From Octopus vulgaris (lineage: Eukaryota): a stretch of 64,000 nucleotides of DNA. The notes under the pieces were generated by a model, which saw nothing but the letters and a program-made list of their open reading frames with translations, did no database searches and was not told where the DNA came from. Location: positions 101,556,001 through 101,620,000 of the forward strand of contig OX597818.1 of NCBI GenBank assembly GCA_951406725.2, given 5' to 3'. The position numbers were made by a program, and so were the translations under genes. Below, piece by piece: positions 3,361 to 62,140 of the stretch; position 1 is the first letter of the stretch, and every line of letters begins with the position of its first letter.

Positions 3361-5859
3361 CATAGATTAATTAATTCATTCATTCCAAAGACAGACATTT
3401 ACATTTTTGTTAGAAACCTGCTCCTTCCTCAAAGGCAGTGTTTAAGAAGCGACAAAAAGAACAGAACATATATACAAGCATTGGATATAAGAAAAAAAAA
3501 TGTGTGTGTGTTTGTGTGTGTGAGTGTGTGTGTGTATGTTTGTGTATGTATGCATATATTCCTATATAGATTAGAATAAATACTGCTGACACACACACAT
3601 GCATACATAAACTCACATGCAGTCAGATAGTGATGTCATAAACACTCATCATGTAAATATAAAATAAAATTAAAACTCCACCTACGGTTCGTCCCAAAAC
3701 TTGTCCATGGATTGAATCATTATCGAACGAGTATATAGCAATTTCGCCTTGAAGAGCTTATTGCCGGAACATGTACTCAAACTTAAAAAGTAAAAAAAGA
3801 TAATGTAATGAATATCTTGGAATAATATTTTGTATGAAAGATATAAATTCATACAAATTTTAATGTTCATTTTCTATCCTAATCTGCGTGATATTCAGCA
3901 TACAACAGTGCGAAAATGCCTTAAATATATTTTGACAATACAAATGTCACGACGTAAAAACAAATAGAGTGGTAACAATCTCTCGTCAGGCAAGTACTTC
4001 AGGCCTTTACGTCTTCCAAACTAGTGGGGAAGATCTGCAACTAAATCATGATTCCTGAGTGCGCTACTACTGATATACTCCATTTTGAAATCGGAGATTC
4101 GTTCATCCCCTGTGCAGTATTTTTCATTCCGTCTGGCCTGGCAAATTGAGCAATCATGGTTCCCACTTTGCCAAAATAGACAGATATAGGAACCTGCTCT
4201 TTACAAGTAAACCTTAGCTAGGACAACACACATACATGCATACAAATATAATAGCTACAAGTGTTAAATATAACTGATCCTCATCTAAAAGACAACGCAC
4301 TTTTATGCGCTTAGGAAAATTACAACCGTATTCTTAATATTGTATGGTTTCCACTAGTATTCCTTTCAATGTAAAAATAAGTGAATATTATTTCTTGAAC
4401 TTTGTTAATGTATAGCCTACATGTAATTAAACACAACGCACCCTGCCATCTTCAATAATTATACTGCTTCTTTATAAAAAGGAACCGTTAACTTTAAAAC
4501 TCGCGTCACTAACGTATATCTATAATATCGCTTAAATTTTTTAGCCTAGCATTTATGTGCAGTAAGCATGTTGATTCTTACTTTAATATAACTTCGACTG
4601 AGAAATTACAAATTTTTTCTGAGAATAAGTAATCTGTGAAATTTAACATTTACAAACCTATTAAAATTAAACGATGATATGTTCAAGCATATCTACATAA
4701 TCTACATATGTCCAACAAATACCTTTGTGTTTTAAAGAGAGAGAGAGATGGCAGAACAAATATGATGTGACTCTAATCTAGGTGTTTGCATGTATGTATA
4801 TAAAACGAAAATGCAACCTACCTCATGAAGAAAACTTCCCAAGCGTGTTCCCTGCTCTTAAAGTTTACGAAAGGAAGGTTTACACCCGGAAGCCTGTGAG
4901 ATAATTAGTATGAGTAGAAATTACGTTAGCTTCGTAGAATTATTAGATATTGTATATATTACCAATTTGATGTCAAGAAAAATAAAATAAAAATAAATTT
5001 TAGAGCGAGTTATAAACAGTAGCTACAACACATCGTAACGTACATTTGCCATTTAAATATAGCTAACACCTAAGGGTGGATGCTACTGTAGTTTGTAGCC
5101 CCAGGAGGACACCTCCTCCAGCTGGCCATAGACTCAATTTCTGTGCCTTATCAGTGTTTGCAAAGGGAAGCCATCCTTCCCGTCTTAAACTTATGATACA
5201 CACGGACTCAATGTTCTGGTTATTGATCAGTCATCGGCGTGTGACAATCATAGTTGTCGATGAGAAACAGGTTCCCTTCACAAACACTTATACTTTTTCC
5301 AGTATCGATAGACACTGATATTGAAGAAAAGGAAAAACAAATTATGTTTAAAGGAACGAAATACATTACATGAAAATGATTGACCGGAGACGTTATAGCA
5401 CGTAAAAAAATATCGTGTGGATTTTGTAACCGATAATCCAATTTCCGACATTTTAGGAGTAATCATGTTCAATATATCTATACAACTATCAATATTAAAT
5501 GTTCAACTTCATATTCAGAGTTATTTTACTTTATCTACGCTTGTGAATATTTAAAATTTTTAAAAATCACAAATATCTTCCCGCATATTGATATTTTGAA
5601 GTTATTTCGTTACCATGGTTTTTCGCCAAAACACGCAGACCGTATTTTAAATGGTTTGAAAATGATGCAAAATATAGAAAAAAGAATAGGAATAGTGCAT
5701 ATAAGCTACATTAACAGGTAATTTTGATGGAAGGATAAACTCTGTAGCACTTTCAAAATGGAGTGGGTATCATAAAACTAAAAAGGTTATATGGAGGCTT
5801 TTTATCAAAAAAGGCATTTCAAATGAAAGAGCTCGGAAAAAATCCATATTGTTTTTATA

Positions 5860-5910
5860 TACTTTTAATGGTTTCGGCAATAGGGCTGAGGCCATGCTGG
5901 AGCACCACAC
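5860..5910 (-). mobile_element. 3' tail fragment of SINE family A
   Basis: gtttcggcaatagggctgaggccatgctggagcacc matches tttcagtcatttgactgcggccatgctggagcacc at 35661-35696. Confidence 0.45.
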
Positions 5911-6473
5911 TAATTTTCTATCAGTATTTGACGCCTTATGCTTGGAGGTTATGATTGAGTTGAACTTTTCTCGGTGTATCCATGGACGATGGGCTGCTCC
6001 GGTAATGTCGTTAGGCCTTTATTCAATACGTGCTTTTTATTTTAAGAATTCCATTAGGGATTCGTTCTATATTTACATTTCTGATTTGTAGGTTTTGCCT
6101 ACTTTGAAAACTCGAGGAAGGTATAAATGCTAACATTGAAAACGATTTATTCAAATTACAGAAATAGTTTGAGACAACTGAAAAAAGTCTATTTCGCACC
6201 GAATTATTTCTTCAGATTTCATTTTTTTAAATATATCGGATTTCTATGACTCCGCAAACCATTGTACGCAAATATTATTTTTTTTCTGTTCCCCAAATTT
6301 TATTTAACGATTATTATAACAATGACCTGTAGAACTCATTCTACGTGTTTACAGCAAAATCTTGCCCTATATCCTATATGTGAGGTAAGGCCTTATCTGA
6401 AGACTGTAAGCTTTGATATATATATTTGTATATATATATATATATTTGTATATATATATTGATATATATTTGT

Positions 6474-6523
<50 letters not shown>

Positions 6524-6871
6524 GTAAATTAAAAAAAATCTTTAAATAAAGAAACTGTTTTCATTTGAAAAATACACAACACGTCATAATATGCACATAT
6601 AACTAACTGTTATTTTTTTGCATATTTCAATTTACGATTACATCACTGTACATAAATCCCCTCACTAAACAAGGTTTTCGAAACTTCTCTTTGTCTGTAC
6701 ACAAATATACTCTCCCCATTACCGAAAGCTGAACAGTTATCACACTTACCAACAAAACTCACAATAATAGCGACAACCAATTACCTCCATGTATTCATCT
6801 ACTTGTGAAGACCTTCACTCGGAATTTCACCACACACAACATGAACAAAATTTCTTCTTAAGAAAAAATAC

Positions 6872-12896: not shown

Positions 12897-14434
12897 TGGA
12901 GAGGGAGATAATTAAGTTATTGAGAAATGTTTTGTGGGTGAAATCCTGATGCCCTGTATCGCAAACATAGCAGTCAGAAGAGATTTAGCACGGAAATAAG
13001 GTGAGGGAGTGGAAATGTCACATGAGACAAGCAAGAAAGAAAAGTTAAAGGACAGGATATCTGTGAAAAACTTCCTTTTAAATTTATATCAAAGATCAGG
13101 ATTTTAAATATGCTCATCAAAAACACAAATAGCACAATAGAAAAAAAATCAATTCAGTTGGATTTCAGCTTTAAATTTGGTCGTGCACACTGCAAAAACT
13201 AACGTAATTCGCACAGAAGTTTTATCTAGAGTGTGTGTATGTATGTGTGTGTGTCTAAAAGGAAGTATTTTTTATGGCATTCTTTCGTTTGAAGACGCAA
13301 AGTTGTCAACTCGACATATATGGAATCATATGATTGATCGTTTGTTTCCATAAAAATTCTTTTAATTCTTTATGCTTTGGAGAGAGTAGAAATTGAAAGA
13401 GAGGATAAAGTAAAAAAGCGACATTTGCTTTGAAATGAGAGGAGAAAGTAAAGCATGTACTGCATATGAAATGAACGTGTGTCAGTGCGAGAAAGAGAGA
13501 GGGAGTGTGTGTGTTTGTGAGAGTGAGTGAGTGAGTGAGTGAGAAGGAAGGAGCGTGCTGTGATGTATTAAGTTTTTTGTATGTATTTGTAAGTGTCTCT
13601 CTCTTCCTCTTTTTTTCACACATGCACATGCACACACACATTATCTTTCATATATATTTACATACATAAGTGGAGGTAAAGAATACGCATACCACCCATT
13701 TTTGGCATAAACCTAAATGTAATCACCGGGTGTGCATAATGTTTACTTTCGTCTATAAATGCATATGTATACATCTGTTTTTGTACTTGAGGGAGATCGG
13801 GAAACCGAATGTATTTCCCCATAACATATACAGAAATGGATATATTTTAATGCAATTTTGGGTGTTGTGGCTTATTTTAATACAGTATTTATGTGTACAT
13901 TTTCATAAATGTTTGTTCGAGTAGAAGTCTAATCATGCGTGAAACATCGGACGACAATGAAACTTTAGAAAGAAATTTAAATGTTGTCACAAAATTACCT
14001 CAAAATTGTGCGACCCGCGTAGTTGCCGAGGTTTTGTTAGTTGCAAAAGTGAGTTGTTGAGTGAAAGACATAGTTTATTTAGTAGACAGTTAATAAGCAG
14101 TGGCTGTTTCGCATTGGCTATGATTCGTTAAGACTTTCAAAGTTGTCAACGAACTGTCATCCAGATCAGATGTTTTGTTCGCTAATTTCTGTATCTATTT
14201 ATTTACCTTTGTATGAAAGTGAAAGAGAGAAAGGGAAAATATGTCTGAACGTGTATATGAAATGGATGTGTGTGTGTGTTTGTGTGTGTAAAAGAGAGAG
14301 AGAGAGAGAGAGGGAGAGAACCATCTTCAAATACATGAGAACACACATCTTCACTCACTCAGGCACTATCTATCTATCTATCTATTTATCTATCTATCAA
14401 TCTACCTATATATATATATATATTTTTATATAGG

Positions 14435-14485
14435 AGCTTCTACAGGACTAGAACTGTTTCATTCAAATGAAATCATCAGGAAGCT
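14435..14485 (-). ncRNA. Type I hammerhead ribozyme motif (left IR copy)
   Basis: Reverse complement is identical to 16601-16651. Confidence 0.65.
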
Positions 14486-14619
14486 TGGCGTCAAGAATAG
14501 TTTTGGCATTTATACATTTAGGCAGATTTGATGGGGTGGTGGTGGGGGACCCCACCCACAAAAACCCCACCCACCCCCACCTTTCCTTCAGCACCCCCAA
14601 TTACCTTCTCTCCTACGAC

Positions 14620-15524
14620 TATTCACATATATATGGATGTTTGCATATGTGTGTGTGTGCGTACATATATGTATACGAGTGCATATACGTATTTGTATGT
14701 GAGCGCATGTGCAACAGTGTATGTACATGTGTATGTGAAGGCGTGTATACGTGTGTATGTGTATATGTGTACATGGCTTTATATATGTATATATATATAT
14801 ATATGTATACATGTATATGTAAGTATGTGTGTATATATGTGTTTGTATGTATATCTGTGTATGTGTATGTGAATGTATATGTACATGTATGCATATATAT
14901 GTATATATGTATTTATAGATATATGTGTGTGTGTGTATGTATATGTACTAGTGTATGCGTGTGTGTGTGTGTACACGGATATATATTCATGTGTAGGTAT
15001 ATGCATGTGTATATGTTAATGGGTGTGTATATGTACACATGTATATATGTGTGTATACATGTAGATATGAGTGTACGTATGTGGATACGAATACACGTAT
15101 GTATATGTGTATGTGTATTTACATATGTATGGGTATATACATATATATATAGATGTAAATTCGGATATGAATATGAATATGAATTTTGATATGGATATAT
15201 ATATGTATGTGCTTATGTGCGGGGATCTATGTGTTTTTATGTATGTATGTATACGTATATGGGTGTATATATATATACGCTTGTATGATTTGTGTATGTG
15301 TATATGTATGTATGCTTGTATGTATTTACGTATATATAGGTGCGCATGTGTGTGTGTATATGTATGCATGTGTATATACATATGTATATATTTATGTATG
15401 TATAAGTGTGCATATGCCTGTATACATGTGGGAGGGTGTATGTATGTATTTGTGTGTGTATGTATGTGTGTATATATATATGTATGTGTATGTATGTATA
15501 TATATATATGTATATATATATATG

Positions 15525-15556
<32 letters not shown>

Positions 15557-15822
15557 TATGTATATGTGTGTGTATGCGTATATATATGTATAGGTGTGTG
15601 TAGGTATGTATGTGTATGTGTATATGTATGAGTGTATATGTATGGACTTGTAGGTTTCTTTATATATGTAGATGCATATGTGTGCGTGTAGGTGCGTAGA
15701 TATGCGTATGTGTATGTGTTTATATATATGTATGTATATGCATGGATACATATAGATGCATGTGTATGTATATGTAGGTATATACGTATGTGTATGCGTG
15801 TATGTGTGTATGTATGTATATG

Positions 15823-15873
<51 letters not shown>

Positions 15874-16410
15874 ATATATATGTGTATATAGAAGGACTTG
15901 TAGATCTCTGTATGTGTATATATGTATGTATGTGTATGTGTGTAGATATGTATTTGTATGTACGTGAACGCATGTGTATGTACGTGCATGTATGTGGATA
16001 TATGTATGTGTGTAGGTATGTATTTGTAGGTATGCTTTTATGTACACGTGTATGCGCGCATGTGTGCATATATGTATTTATAAGCATATGCGTGTACATA
16101 TGAGGGCAGATGCTCATGTGTGTTTGTATATATGTGCATGTATGCGTGTGTGTGTGTGTGTATGTGTGTATATATGCATGTGTATATGTATATGTATATG
16201 TATGTGTGTGTGTGTGTGTATGGGTGTGTATATTCCTTTTTTATATATATATGTGTAGATATATATATATATGTGCGTATGTATATAAATGTGTGTGTAT
16301 GAGTATGTGTATGTGTATGTGTGTGTATGTGTATACGTATGTATATGTGTATACATATGTGTATGTATATGTATACATATGTATATAAATATATGTATAT
16401 ATATATAAGC
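14620..16410. repeat. ~1.8-kb compound degenerate (TA/TG/TATG) microsatellite
   Basis: Alternating purine-pyrimidine low-complexity tract; the source of many spurious ORFs. Confidence 0.95.
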
Positions 16411-16600
16411 AATAGTCTTCCTATTTACCTAAAACTCTCTTCTATTATTCTATTTATTCATTTATCTACTTTATCACTGATTCTTTTGACCACTACCCTA
16501 AGAAAGACAGTTTGTGCCCTGCCTACCCCAAAAAAGTCCCCCACCACCACCCCATCAAATCTGCCTAAATGTATAAATGCCAAAACTATTCTTGACGCCA

Positions 16601-16651
16601 AGCTTCCTGATGATTTCATTTGAATGAAACAGTTCTAGTCCTGTAGAAGCT
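16601..16651 (+). ncRNA. Type I hammerhead ribozyme motif (right IR copy)
   Basis: AGCTTC-CTGATGA-tTTCatttGAAt-GAAA-CAG-ttctagtc-CTG-TA-GAAGCT. Stem I is 6 bp, the CUGAUGA/GAAA core is intact, stem III is ACAG/CUGU and the triplet is GUA (predicted cut after 16645). Stem II is weak, with U-U at its base. Confidence 0.65.
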
Positions 16652-16743
16652 CCTTCTATAAAATAAATTAATTTACTCTGCATGTATTGAGTGGTTAACC
16701 CCGACTCAACCCGGGTCCTACATATATATATATATATATATAC

Positions 16744-16802
<59 letters not shown>

Positions 16803-18274: not shown

Positions 18275-18294
18275 TTGTATATGTGTTTGTTTAC

Positions 18295-18344
<50 letters not shown>

Positions 18345-18364
18345 GTAAACAAACACATATACAA
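18275..18364. repeat. Perfect 90-bp palindrome centred on (AT)19
   Basis: ttgtatatgtgtttgtttacgtgtgc-(AT)19-gcacacgtaaacaaacacatatacaa; the 26-bp flanks are exact reverse complements. Confidence 0.95.
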
Positions 18365-21614: not shown

Positions 21615-22118
21615 CCACCTGTGTCCTAGCGTGTAGAAAAATTAGTCAATAGACGATATATTATTCATATAAATACAGTGTACATTTAAGCATATAAGAG
21701 GTATCCGTCATAGGATTCCTTTCACGCTAGAAGGAACAGGTAAAGTTCAAACCACAATTATGGATGAAAACTCGAAGGGATTGAAAAATGAAAACACTTC
21801 AAAAAATTTTATTTTATTTGCTAAAAAAGTCAGAAACGTGATCGTGAGTGAACGTGTATATGTGTATGTGTATCTGTGTGTCTGTGTAAGCGGGTATATG
21901 TGTGTGTGTACATGTCTATTGGTACGTATGTGTGTGTATTTGTGTGTGAGAGCATCATAGCATTTTAGCATCATAATTTTGAAATATCTATAAAGCCATC
22001 AAACGCTTATTTTTATTTTCTATGTTTATTAGTTATTAGTGTTTCTTAATGTGTTTTGCTAAAATAGCTGTTTCGTTTCAGATATCATCAAAGAAAAAGG
22101 TAATTAAAATTCATTAAA

Positions 22119-22975
22119 ATGACAGATCTATCGGACTTTCAAATACGTCAAACTGCCGGTGCTTGTGTGGCAGGCGCTAGCGTTACGAAAACAGCCGAAA
22201 TATTTGGTGCATCAAGGAGTACTGTCTCGAAAGTAATGTCACTCTTTGAGAGAGAGGGTAAAACTCCTCGTCGAAGCAGAACTGCGGAAGAAAACCGAAA
22301 CTTTCAGAAAGGGACTATTAGATTCTTACGCGAATTGTTAGAAAGGATAACAAAACTACAGCTCCCAAAATTACTGCAGAGATTAAAGACCATCTCGAGA
22401 ACCCAGATTACACAAAGACCGTCCACCGGGAGATGCACAAAGCCAGATTTCGCAGGAGTGTTGCAATCAGAAACTAATACTTTTAAATACAAACGTTGCA
22501 AAGCGTTTAGACGGGATTGAAAACCTACAGAATTGGTCCGTAGAGCAGTGGAAGAATGTTATTTTCTCGGACGAGGCAGTCTTCGCCTTGTTTCCGACCA
22601 CCTGGAGATTGTCAAAAGAAGAATTTGATCCAGACTGCCTTCTTACAACTATTAAACATACAGGAGAATCTATGATGATCTGGGGGGGGCTATATCTTGG
22701 AAATCCGCCGGCCCAATGGTTTCTCTTCATGGCAGAATTAATAGTCAATATTATTTAAGCATGCTATTTGATCAAATTTACCCTATGTTTGCGGAACTGT
22801 TTCCGGAAGGAAACGTAACGTTTCAGGATGATAATGCACCACCTCACACAGCTATAGTTGTTACTGAATGGCACCAGGAACATTCTGGTGAAGTTGAACA
22901 TCTTCTCTGTCCACCACAGTCCCCAAATCTCAATATTATTAAACTCCTCTGGTAAATTTTAGAAAAACAAGCTTG
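22119..22975 (+). mobile_element. Tc1-like transposase pseudogene (DD34E type)
   Basis: MTDLSDFQIRQTAGACVAGASVTKTAEIFGASRSTVSKVM (HTH); WKNVIFSDEA; FQDDNAPPHTA; CPPQSPNLNIIKLLW. Frameshifted and truncated at a microsatellite. Confidence 0.9.
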
Positions 22976-24508: not shown

Positions 24509-24562
<54 letters not shown>

Positions 24563-24563
24563 C

Positions 24564-24811
24564 GTATAGGAAAGAATGGAGCTGAACGAAGATTTAACAA
24601 AATTCCTGTATTTTATTTTCGACATATGTTTCGAAGTCTGCAAATCCTAATTCCGAATGAATAAGGAGTCCATTATGCAGCTGAAGAGAAAGATGCATAA
24701 TGGACTCCTTATTCATTCGGAATTGGGGACTTTGCAGACTTCGAAACATATGTCGAAAATAAAATAAAGGAATTTTGTTAAATCTTCGTTCAGCTCCATT
24801 CTTTCCTATAC
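24564..24811. repeat. Near-perfect fold-back (arms 24564-24679 and 24694-24811, 14-nt loop)
   Basis: gtataggaaagaatggagctgaacgaagatttaacaaaattcc...cattatgca / tgcataatg...ggaattttgttaaatcttcgttcagctccattctttcctatac. Only a few mismatches or indels; the loop is gctgaagagaaaga. Confidence 0.95.
24681..24760 (+). ncRNA. Hammerhead core with palindromic minimal stem III; stem I 5' strand lost
   Basis: CTGAAGA-GAAagaTGCA...TGCAgacTTC-GAAAC-ATAT-GTC-gaaaat. Core intact, G-C at the base of stem II, GUC triplet, ACATATGT palindrome as in minimal PLE hammerheads. Confidence 0.6.
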
Positions 24812-24960
24812 TTAATATATCAAACTTCAAATTTCCGCACTAAGGCACGGATTTTATGCCCTTTGGTCGTAACTTCAACCGTGCTTTTTCTGTTGTGAGT
24901 TTGCTACCCAGATATCGGTTATCTTTCGAATTATCCGTAATAAGATAATTCATTTGTCTA

Positions 24961-25005
<45 letters not shown>

Positions 25006-25849: not shown

Positions 25850-26740
25850 CTAGAAACAATTAACGTACTTGACCCTGATAGAAAGGATCACAAAAGTACA
25901 GCTCCCAAAATTACTGCACAGCTTAAAGACGACCTCCAGGAACCAGTTTCCGCAGAAACTATTTGCCAGGAGCTGGACTAAGCCAGGTTTAACCTGAAGT
26001 CTGCTATTAACATCTACTTTCAAATACAAACGTTGCAAAGCGTTTAGAGTGGATGGAAAACCTACAGAATTGGTCTGTAGAGCAGAGGAAGAATGCTATA
26101 TTCTTGGACGAGTCATCCTGTACTTTATTTCCAACCACCGACCGAGTATACGTTTGGAGGCATCCAAAAGAAGCATTTGAACCAGACTGCCTTCTATCTA
26201 CTGTTAAACCTAGAGAAGATTCTGTAATGATCTGGGGGCGGGTGCTATATCTTGGGAATCCGCCGGCTCAATGCTTTCCCTTCATGGCAAAATTAATAGT
26301 CCAGCCTACTTAAGCATGATATTTGAGCAAATTCATCCTATGATTTCGGAACTGTTACCGGAGTGAAGCGCAATCTTTCAGGATGATAATGCACCAATTC
26401 ACTACAATTGCTACTGAATGGCACAAGGAACATTCTAGTCAAGTTGAAAATCTTATCTGGCCACCTCAGTCCACTGATCTCAATATTATTGAACATTTAT
26501 GGTACATTTCAGAAAAATAAGTAAAGATTCGATATCCTCCACCACCATCACTGCAAGAACTGGAGACTGTTTTTGCTGAAGAATGGATGAAAATTTCTTT
26601 GAAAACAATTCAATCTTTGAATGAGTCCCTACCTCGTAGAATTCAAGCTATAATTATTGCCAAAGACAGTCCTATCCCATATTAAAATAAAATGTGCTTG
26701 AAATTTTAAGATGTTTCCATTGTTTTATCCAACACCTGTA
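25850..26740 (+). mobile_element. Tc1-like transposon 3' two-thirds with right TIR (same family as 22119-22975)
   Basis: NWSVEQRKNAIFLDESS...VWRHPKEAFEPDCLLSTVK, FQDDNAPIH, WPPQSTDLNIIEHLW. Ends gtttccattgttttatccaacacctgta (CAGGTGTTGG-type TIR plus TA). The DNA is homologous to 22330-22970. Confidence 0.9.
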
Positions 26741-32099: not shown

Positions 32100-32345
32100 T
32101 TCAGGTGTTGTTGGAGAACCTCGAGTCTTGCATGCATTGCGGGCTTCCTACATGCTGGCCGTTCTTTCCAGCTGTTTAATACTTTCCTGATTACTCTGGC
32201 CATGCCAAGGAGAACAATTTTTTCTCACAGTTCTTCTGGGTACCCTATTCCAATTTCCTTTATGTTCCCTTGGTGTCTTCTGATATTGTTCCAAAGGGCA
32301 CCACCATAATTGGCACTTCAGTTTCTTCGTTTTCCTAGCTGGGCT
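32100..32345 (-). mobile_element. 3' end of an RLE-type (R4/Dong-like) LINE, decayed
   Basis: Minus strand reads ...EVPIMVVPFGTIS... and ...LLGMARVIRKVLNS, paralleling IPIIVGALG...LLGTAHILRRTLS at 53161-53381. Abuts a (TTA)n tract. Confidence 0.55.
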
Positions 32346-32346
32346 G

Positions 32347-32665
<319 letters not shown>

Positions 32666-33039
32666 TTAGTTCATAAATTCATAAATTGTATATTTATGCG
32701 TCTAGTAGTTTACCGGTAAAGGACGTTCATTTTTTCAGCTTTCTTTGATGGAAGCTACGAGAATCTGTATTTGTCTCTACAATTGTTTGGACCCAACTAA
32801 CATCGATCCCTCACGAGTGGCTTACTCAAGGTCTTATTTAAGTGTATCCGTCGGTGGAGTGCTGTCGGTGTAGGTGATTATATATAAGATGTATATCGTC
32901 AAATAACGTTTATTCCGCAAGATTTCTCCTCGGTATGTGTATACAAACCGGAAAATTAGAGGTCACAGCACTAAGAAATATCAGAGGCGAACATAAATAA
33001 ATACATTATACAGGGAAAAGAGTATCCAACAATAGCAAC

Positions 33040-33393
33040 ATTTTGGAATATCTCTTTATGGCCGCGTTCTAGCCCAGATCTAAACGCTCTGGATTATGCT
33101 ATTTGGGGCGTTTTAGAATATGCTACCAATAGAACATCACACAGCAATGTCGACTATCTTAAAGATACTATTAAAGAAGAATGGGAGAAGTTGTCTCCCG
33201 AATATTTAAGGAACACATGTGCAAGTTTCAGGAAGCGTGTGAAGGCAGTTATTGGGAAAGGAGGACACATGGAATAATAACATTTTCTCTTATGTAAATT
33301 TTCTTGTGGCAAATAAATTCTCATGACATTCAATAAACTAATTGGTCCTACACAGACTTTCAATTCCTGCCTCAAAATATTCCCCACCCTGTA
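33040..33393 (+). mobile_element. maT/DD37D-like transposon 3' end with TIR
   Basis: FWNISLWPRSSPDLNALDYAIWGVLE...LKDTIKEEWEKLSPEYLRNTCASFRKRVKAVIGKGGHME* (SPDLNPLDY motif). Ends aaaatattccccaccctgta. Confidence 0.8.
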
Positions 33394-53160: not shown

Positions 53161-54315
<1,155 letters not shown>

Positions 54316-61339: not shown

Positions 61340-62140
61340 TGACGATTTGGCACTAATGTGACCTGTGTCTGAACATGTCAAAGTGCTGTCATCTGCCTGT
61401 TGGCTCTTCTCCTGCAACTCAACTTGATTTCAGCCGGGTCGTCTGCTGCTGGAGAGGACCGGCCAGGTAAAGGACCTGGGTTTCTTGGTGGATTCTTTCT
61501 TTTCGCCTGCGTTCATGCTGCCAACAAAGCACGCGGAGTTCTGTTTTTGATTCGACGATCATTCGGAATGCTCACAGCAGCCATATTCCTACCGCTCTAT
61601 GTCACGCTGGTGAGACCCATATTGGATTACGGGATTCAAGCCTCTTCTCCTTATCTCCTCAAAGACATACATCATCTCGAAAGAGTCCAGAAGCTGGCAA
61701 CCCGCATGGTTCTTGGTCTCAAGCATTTGTCTTATGAAGACAGGCTGAAGACGTTCGACCTTTATTCTCTAGAATAACGACGACGCCGTGGTGATCTCAT
61801 TCTTGCTCACAACATTATAAGCGGAAAGTGTAACCTCTCGAAAGAGCTGTTCTTCACTCCTATTCTAGAACGTCGGCTGCGGGGTCACTCCGAAAAGCTC
61901 TATCTGCGACGATTTCATCTCAATCGAAGGAGGGGTTTTCTCCATCCGGGTTGCAGATCCGTGGAATAGGCTGCCGGACGAGATAGTGAAGATGCCGACG
62001 ACCGCTCGGTTCAAAGTCTCTCTTGACCAGAAATGGATTGAACTCATTGCATGAACACCCTCCCTGTACATAACTCCATGTTCCCCTACATGGCCTTCCT
62101 TTTTGGTTTTTGAGCCAAAAAATTAACTTAACTTAACTAA
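61340..62140 (+). mobile_element. CR1-like LINE 3' end
   Basis: LNMSKC...VKDLG...ANKARGVLFLIRRSF...LYVTLVRPILDYG...LERVQKLATRMV.GLKHLSYEDRLK..LYSLE*RRRRGDLI...LRGHSEKL...WNRLP; tail (TTAAC)n at 62122-62140. Confidence 0.92.

Follow-up and report, generated by a model that had tools for sequence, protein, structure and literature searches.

A 64,000-nucleotide stretch of the Octopus vulgaris genome (assembly GCA_951406725.2, contig OX597818.1, forward-strand positions 101,556,001 to 101,620,000; hereafter the window) carries, at 14432 to 16722, a unit in which two inverted arms, each with a hammerhead ribozyme motif, enclose a long microsatellite. The unit is almost certainly a 5'-truncated, twin-armed copy of a Penelope-like element (PLE). 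From this copy and its sisters elsewhere in the genome, we propose that the RNA of Hydra-clade PLEs starts on the first base of the hammerhead and that primers at the two target ends copy a single sense RNA twice, starting at two internal sites. The scars of ~200 bp would then be run-off products that record the start, the question of a sense versus an antisense template would be answered, and the ribozyme would be a self-decapping switch rather than a 3'-end processor. We assign this combined reading a probability of roughly 55%.

Searches covered the genome at 2.8 Gb in 227 contigs, and L-numbers denote stretches of it. Positions with a sign are counted from +1, the first base of hammerhead stem I, which is window position 16601. 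Statements on published work refer throughout to those portions of the cited papers that were accessible. The unit and its borders are composed as follows, with 3' UTR standing for 3' untranslated region, pLTR for pseudo-long terminal repeat and ORF for open reading frame.

14403..14431, no strand: left (TA)n target tract, the last bases of which look like a degenerate continuation of the arm end
14432..14550, minus strand: the element's 3' end copied in inverted orientation and without a tail, spanning −65 to +54, a form that matches 53 of 56 outward pairs
14435..14485, minus strand: type I hammerhead motif of the left arm
14509..14514, minus strand: TATAAA at −29 from stem I in the left arm, a putative outward promoter
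14549..14550, no strand: 2-nt microhomology (AC) at the head-to-head joint, from comparison with L108
14549..14625, plus strand: unique start of the element's 3' UTR, which adjoins the ORF end in L034, L081, L108 and others
14626..16407, plus strand: compound (TA/TG) microsatellite, part of the element's 3' UTR according to shared 18-mers
16408..16600, plus strand: unique pLTR body upstream of the hammerhead
16572..16577, plus strand: TATAAA at −29 from stem I in the right arm, a putative promoter at the spacing that 128 of 133 arms show
16601..16651, plus strand: type I hammerhead motif with a predicted cut after 16645; its first base, 16601, forms the family's 5' wall and is the likely start of transcription
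16652..16722, plus strand: end region with the internal end site near +68 and, in sister copies, the ~70-nt one-sided tail to +137; 15-nt deletion here
16722..16799, no strand: right (TA)n target tract

Re-comparison of the arms confirmed the exact inverted repeat described in the initial annotation: 14432-14550 is the reverse complement of 16536-16654 at 119 of 119 positions, with a mismatch at the next bases both outward and inward. Each arm reads AGCTTC-CUGAUGA-U-UUC/AUUU/GAA-U-GAA-ACAG/8-nt loop/CUGU-A-GAAGCU, that is, a 6-bp stem I, the core CUGAUGA, a 3-bp stem II with U-U closure, GAAA, a 4-bp stem III and the GUA triplet, with a predicted cut after A16645 (+45). The outward-pointing type I motifs were thus correctly recognized, as were the non-coding compound microsatellite interior (1,713 bases of the unit lie in TRF arrays) and the (TA)n flanks. 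Since the core pattern has 2,213 exact matches in the genome and its reversed control none, the motif is not due to chance. Perfect identity between arms is ordinary for this family, as 11 of 25 palindromic loci have zero mismatches over the first 55 nt. Judged by its 99% identity to the copy in L021, the window copy is young, in keeping with the age first proposed for it; its tail carries a deletion of ~15 nt relative to sister copies.

The parent of the unit was found in L081 and L082, which carry a whole ORF, while copies with a wider spacing of the outward motifs carry pieces of it. In L081 the ORF encodes 713 aa and is preceded by a pLTR and followed by a UTR and a second pLTR. The order is pLTR (hammerhead and tail), 183-nt leader, ORF, a UTR of 2.2-3 kb, and again hammerhead and tail. 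The whole unit measures ~5.2 kb (tandem-copy period 5,193 bp), and partial tandems forming pLTRs occur in L081, L090, L091 and L100. The predicted protein contains RWR (38-40), DKT (116), YRDD, CxCx5C (567-575), YIG, CxxC (667-670) and CxH (695-697), and has no match to GxKF/Y. The RWR corresponds to RWK in a sister family, here called family B, and in most aligned homologs. Its GIY-YIG core is without a cysteine pair (no CCHH), unlike that of the Penelope-type ORF in L035. At E ≤ 1e-20 the protein has 1,117 homologs, some with PF00078 or PF01541. The parent is thus an autonomous, endonuclease-bearing (EN+) PLE, and its motifs and hammerhead features match the definition of the Hydra clade (PMC8557442). 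In L035 a Penelope/Poseidon-type ORF lies in pieces at 4002-6656, with RVT_1 and GIY-YIG matches, between two arms of the window element's family. A youngest subfamily (L081, L082 and L277-L306) has A in core position 7 and a tail variant with four Ts; many of its ORFs, 500-720 aa long, are open, and it is probably still or recently active.

The microsatellite belongs to this element. The forward arm of the window unit begins 4 nt past the position of the ORF stop codon in natural copies, and 2 to 261 of the 1,201 distinctive 18-mers of the window microsatellite are shared, in the same orientation, with the UTRs of nine other copies, compared with 0-1 for seven control stretches. Because the window sequence from 14549 onwards is the sequence that follows the natural stop codon, and because the microsatellite is shared with other UTRs, the unit consists of a forward arm (UTR, hammerhead and tail) joined with a 2-base overlap to a tail-less inverted arm. 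The initial annotation had rightly proposed a PLE origin with inverted pLTR ends bearing type I hammerheads. It also suggested a search for further copies and for an adjacent PLE ORF; the genome has the 2,213 core matches, and an ORF lies between the pLTRs of L081. The same annotation regarded the unit as a non-autonomous, retrozyme-like element with simple repeat as its cargo, which does not hold: interior and right arm are the 3' UTR end of an ORF-bearing element, and the microsatellite is that element's own, present in the same orientation in other copies. Its notion of a vehicle that spreads microsatellite DNA survives in part. The family does carry microsatellite (68-74% of the UTR is tandem repeat), and its contribution is minor: 2,621 upstream-extending arms (a lower bound) at up to ~2.3 kb each would give ~6 Mb at most, or about 0.2% of the genome. 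Tandem repeats make up 12% of the window.

Across the genome the outer ends of the insertions are fixed, one arm ending near +68 and the other at +137, which leaves a one-sided tail of ~70 nt. Exactly one tail was found in 53 of 56 outward pairs from 74 loci, a count that omits 19 of the loci because no partner was found within the fetched stretch (15 long, 4 short). The same holds for palindromes, in 24 of 25 by script and in the 25th by eye. Target-site duplications are unreadable within (TA)n. Inner ends are sharply bounded: of 60 tail-anchored arms, located by BLAST with two rows reassigned by eye, 19 start at +1, 22 at +2 to +60, only 4 at −1 to −60, and 15 beyond −150. Partner columns are noisy, with over-extension to −5 across palindromes and (TA)n matches, and therefore only tailed-arm starts were used. 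Most insertions are twins of ~130-210 bp, and in an insertion either arm may be the longer. Arms starting at or inside the ribozyme account for 81 of 100 among the matches listed for older subfamilies (1,464 in total) and for 49 of 100 among those listed for the youngest (2,406 in total), by-eye counts over the first places of the largest contigs, from which a total of about 2,400 short insertions can be extrapolated.

The two arms of an insertion agree in class. Among the pairs, 36 are short/short, 18 long/long and 2 mixed, against about 25 mixed pairs expected from independent templates, and the tailed arm is the short arm in 14 of 16 loci with joints through stem I (L101-L106, L207-L216). 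For one core variant alone, 364 loci are perfect twin-hammerhead palindromes, with +1 as the end of either arm and AGCT as the overlap. Many other starts at +1 lack a palindrome; there the arm is joined through an overlap of 1-2 bases or a short filler, or directly abuts (TA)n. Several loop variants are represented among the palindromes and always match between arms, and private changes are present in both arms of L048 and L148, which argues that palindromes formed anew with each insertion and do not stem from one amplifying mini-element. On this pattern, the window copy would be a long product, one cDNA having stopped at −65 and the other 2.1 kb upstream. A twin-arm mini-insertion of a third family lies in the window at 24555-24962 between (TA)n tracts, consisting of a 268-bp palindrome (92%) with a hammerhead-like core, a long stem II and a ~140-nt tail on one side; its twin form recurs in L161 and diverged copies in L133 and L178.

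The 5' wall coincides with a promoter-like arrangement. TATAAA stands at −29 in 128 of 133 arms that retain upstream sequence, arms chosen by nearby sequence within a young family, and has 2,621 exact genome matches at that spacing. Of the 23-base spacer between TATAAA and stem I, 12 columns vary while its length is constant. At −1, G is found in 344 matches and C in 73. Most of these are explained by the partner arm or by native variants; after by-eye removal of such rows, G remains in 26 of the 100 listed (about 89) and C in 14 of 73. An extra G from copying of the cap has been reported for full-length L1 insertions (PMC11702581), and a transcription start site has been placed in the pLTR of two other PLEs (PMC8557442). 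Taken together, spacing and wall make it reasonably probable that transcription starts at the first base of hammerhead stem I.

Family B (L086-L089, L247-L276; 4,124 genome matches) offers a comparison. Its ORF of ~710 aa is Hydra-like and 43% identical to that of the window family, its unit measures 3.35-3.43 kb with a UTR of which 6% is tandem repeat, and its hammerhead is unrelated in sequence, with A-A closure of stem II. Its end sites (+89 and +159) lie 70 nt apart as in the window family, and it forms the same twin products. Among 30 loci, none of the 11 short insertions starts further out than −3, while the 12 long arms run through.

The data show which ORF is the parent, that the microsatellite comes from the UTR, that a tail of ~70 nt stands on one side only, that the two outer end sites are fixed at +68 and +137, and how the joint is built. 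From these we propose the following course of events, which in outline is likely. The pLTR would hold a TATA promoter from which transcription likely begins at the first base of stem I. With a start at +1, both priming sites would be present twice in a full transcript, near the capped 5' end and near the 3' end. The protein, probably as a dimer, would nick (TA)n; one target end would serve for priming at +68 and the other for priming at +137, and the first cDNA would be displaced by the second enzyme. On the 5' copy, the two cDNAs would reach the cap and run off it at lengths of ~70 and ~137 nt; their annealing, often through AGCT ends that are self-complementary, would yield twin-hammerhead insertions of ~200 bp. 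On the 3' copy, cDNAs would extend into the UTR or ORF and give long insertions; the window unit likely arose by two primings from both sides of one (TA)n cut on the same sense RNA, with a 2-base microhomology join. Tail asymmetry, wall, AGCT palindromes, agreement in class and the near 1:1 split of short and long insertions in the youngest subfamily would all follow from the +1 start and one shared RNA. The ribozyme would be mostly uncut in the templates, and cleavage would take off the cap and the first 45 nt. For a PLE in vitro, two internal start sites define the tail, both target strands are cut and extended, a dimer is predicted, and uncut RNA serves as template (PMC11167929).

Several points weigh against this proposal. 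The +1 start is a putative one, read from DNA insertions. The arms on which the TATA spacing was measured were picked for their surroundings and are young, the 19 absent partners bear on the pair count, and in family B an initiator-like CCATTCT is found with no TATA at −29. The G excess was established by eye, many fillers consist of short templated stretches with a final G, and both patterns at −1 drop rows by their first letter. The short fraction, at 81% in older and 49% in the youngest subfamilies, also fits later loss or collapse of long copies. The wall is the 5' edge of stem I in both families, which a structural cause would fit as well. Finally, Pfam found neither reverse transcriptase (RT) nor GIY-YIG in the L034 fragment.

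A rival reading keeps the twin priming and ascribes the wall either to 5'-3' exonuclease trimming down to the base of stem I or to a stop of RT at a boundary defined by protein or structure. This is possible, though doubtful. In its favour, the wall sits at stem I's outer edge in each of the two families, and family B lacks a TATA box at −29. Against it stand TATAAA at exactly −29 in the window family and the G excess at −1; long copies cross +1 freely, and only one subfamily has the small hairpin that precedes stem I, while all have the wall. Moreover, a polymerase encounters a helix at its 3' side, not once it is unwound. That hairpin was also considered as a site of foldback and discarded, no such spaced palindrome being present among the 100 matches listed. 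A 3' splice site at the edge of stem I was likewise discarded, as the arms keep AG and have no common upstream exon; such a site has been reported for Penelope of D. virilis (PMC4209133). If, instead, long inverted repeats had lost their centre to microhomology deletion once they were inserted and had become short twins in this way, AGCT and GAAGCT would be at hand as direct repeats across both arms, and older subfamilies would be expected to be richer in short forms, as they are (81 versus 49 per 100 listed). Such deletion gives no reason for a stop at a single base (19 arms at +1 versus 4 in the 60 bases upstream), and many +1 starts have fillers or a direct (TA)n join in place of a palindrome. 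As the youngest subfamily is already half short, we regard such later deletion as unlikely.

Self-priming on an antisense transcript, to which joint palindromes were ascribed in rotifer elements (PMC3846280), would account for the palindromes that are common here too. It appears quite unlikely given that many joints are non-palindromic, with 0-4-nt overlaps or fillers, that both arms end on (TA)n at two fixed sites of the sense strand, and that they share a 5' limit downstream of a sense TATA box. The retrozyme-like unit of the initial annotation, moving as such with its microsatellite, is very improbable as well. The copy is non-coding and young and has a hammerhead in each arm, as that reading would have it, yet its joint recurs in no second copy among 40 joint-region matches, arm lengths vary at every locus, tandem monomers are absent, and the interior is the 3' UTR of ORF-bearing copies. 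The perfect identity of the arms could raise the suspicion of an assembly artefact or of the terminal inverted repeats (TIRs) of a DNA transposon. Either is hardly credible, as dozens of examined loci share an asymmetric build between flanks that differ and are not mirror images, and the parent ORF encodes a protein of the RT-endonuclease type. A DNA transposon or miniature inverted-repeat transposable element is further contradicted by arm lengths and outer ends that differ between sides and loci, with no fixed TIR or length. Two primings on one sense RNA that likely starts at +1 are the preferred reading.

In the ribozyme motif, the core CUGANGA, GAAA and NUH and stems I and III are all present. 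Parts of the stems served to select 125 arms, and among these the common variants lie in N7 and in loops II and III, apart from one stem I column that slightly exceeds 5%. That variants spare the core and the stems suggests selection for the hammerhead fold, as far as sequence comparison can tell. Stem II, with 3 bp and U-U closure, is not the stable G10.1-C11.1 form of type I hammerheads. In the predicted minimum-energy fold of the window variant, a UUCAU/AUGAA pairing buries G12-A14, and predicted pair probabilities are 0.01-0.02 for stem II, 0.75-0.99 for stem I and 0.44-0.52 for stem III (fold z-score −0.43). The concern that TTTCAT/ATGAAA might sequester the GAAA was thus justified in the predicted ensemble, although stems I and III are kept. 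The U-U base of stem II, by contrast, had been noted as a weakness; it is no defect but the usual form among Hydra-clade hammerheads (PMC8557442 File S2). The proposed search with Rfam hammerhead models was run and gave no match at E ≤ 10, either for the motif of the window family or for family B; apart from this, the Rfam scans returned only spurious microRNA matches on repeats.

The idea that the element is defined by self-cleavage near the 3' end finds no support. The arms retain an uncut motif and end about 10-25 nt or ~90 nt past the cut site. Joints beginning at the cut site are rare (20 loci, versus 364 palindromes of a single variant), as are arms starting there (about 2 of 200 among the matches listed), and hammerhead cleavage was rejected on these counts as the origin of the arm ends. 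Conservation of the ribozyme nonetheless suggests that cleavage may still occur at some stage. With the ribozyme at the 5' end, cleavage would strip the RNA of its cap and its first 45 nt, along with a short upstream ORF found at +24; such a role is speculation.

The element represents a new family within a known clade, its architecture is a known one, and a single such locus is ordinary PLE debris. In the literature searched, no match appeared for a UTR with so long a microsatellite, for a tail of 70 nt or for a 5' wall exact to the base. That search, which lay outside subscription papers, Repbase notes, supplementary figures and bioRxiv supplements, found no description of a 5' wall at stem I or of cap run-off twins. 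Both the origin of head-to-head, one-tailed PLE copies and the purpose of the hammerhead have been stated to be open (PMC3846280, PMC8557442), and this genome offers such products by the thousand, from two families and with a boundary exact to the base. If the proposal is true, the RNA should have a capped start at +1, the promoter should depend on the TATA box, and one sense RNA should give rise to twin products. Moreover, compound microsatellite makes up most of the 3' UTR, so that every long insertion brings in a finished repeat tract along with putative promoters that face outward.

The remainder of the window holds other repeats. A perfect 90-bp hairpin centred on (TA)n lies at 18275-18364. 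The decayed fragments at 22104-22758, 26011-26313 and 32975-33277 we take to be of Tc1/mariner-like transposases, and 61373-61777 is presumably a C-terminal fragment of a LINE-type reverse transcriptase. The 3' end of a non-LTR element ORF (53590-54159, weak zf-RVT match) adjoins a long (AAT)n tract, and a similar end is found near 32150-32350 on the minus strand.

Among known systems, the Hydra-clade PLEs (Craig et al. 2021, PMC8557442) are closest, sharing a single ORF with a C-terminal endonuclease, DKT, the CxCx5C linker, CxxC and CxH, as well as (TA)n targets and a type I hammerhead; several entries of their File S2 combine U-U closure of stem II with an ACAG/CUGU-A stem III as found here. 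Described Hydra elements are generally <3 kb, whereas the present unit reaches ~5.2 kb because of its 2.2-3-kb microsatellite UTR. It further differs in RWR instead of RWK, in a tail of ~70 nt instead of 30-40, and in its thousands of copies, and the hammerhead of the window family differs from that of Hydra-1_oBim, which marks another family (PMC8557442). The accessible part of a further report gives Penelope counts for an octopus, and the word hammerhead is absent from it (PMC13282606). With EN+ PLE insertions in general, the octopus copies share head-to-head inverted 3' ends with a tail on one, joint palindromes, and TATA and initiator motifs in the pLTRs (PMC8557442, PMC3846280). Unlike in the accessible descriptions of these, either arm can be the longer, most copies are twins of ~130-210 bp bounded by one base, and arm classes co-vary.

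Poseidon of Anolis, studied in vitro (Frangieh et al. 2024, PMC11167929), is alike in the two internal RT start sites that define the tail, in the cutting and extension of both target strands and in the use of an uncut RNA template, and its ribozyme alone is weak; there the ribozyme overlaps the ORF start, whereas here it lies 183 nt upstream. The accessible parts of that work show neither the joining of the two cDNAs nor the position of the RNA start relative to the ribozyme. The dual minimal hammerheads of Schistosoma, on opposite strands 100-700 bp apart, were likewise ascribed to truncated PLEs (Cervera and De la Pena 2014, PMC4209133), but these motifs keep G10.1-C11.1 without a stable stem III, and neither boundary nor mechanism is described in the accessible part of that work. 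Animal non-LTR retrozymes are also non-coding, PLE-derived and equipped with a type I hammerhead (bioRxiv 10.64898/2026.07.22.740005; PMC7229834); they are head-to-tail tandem monomers, whereas the octopus copies are head-to-head, and an autonomous element would have left them as dead-end products. L1 twin priming, finally, resembles the proposed mechanism in its two primings from both target ends on one RNA, its microhomology joint and its cap-derived G (PMC11702581). It inverts without duplicating the 3' end, while here the 3' end sequence is copied twice because the second priming site lies only ~70 nt inside.

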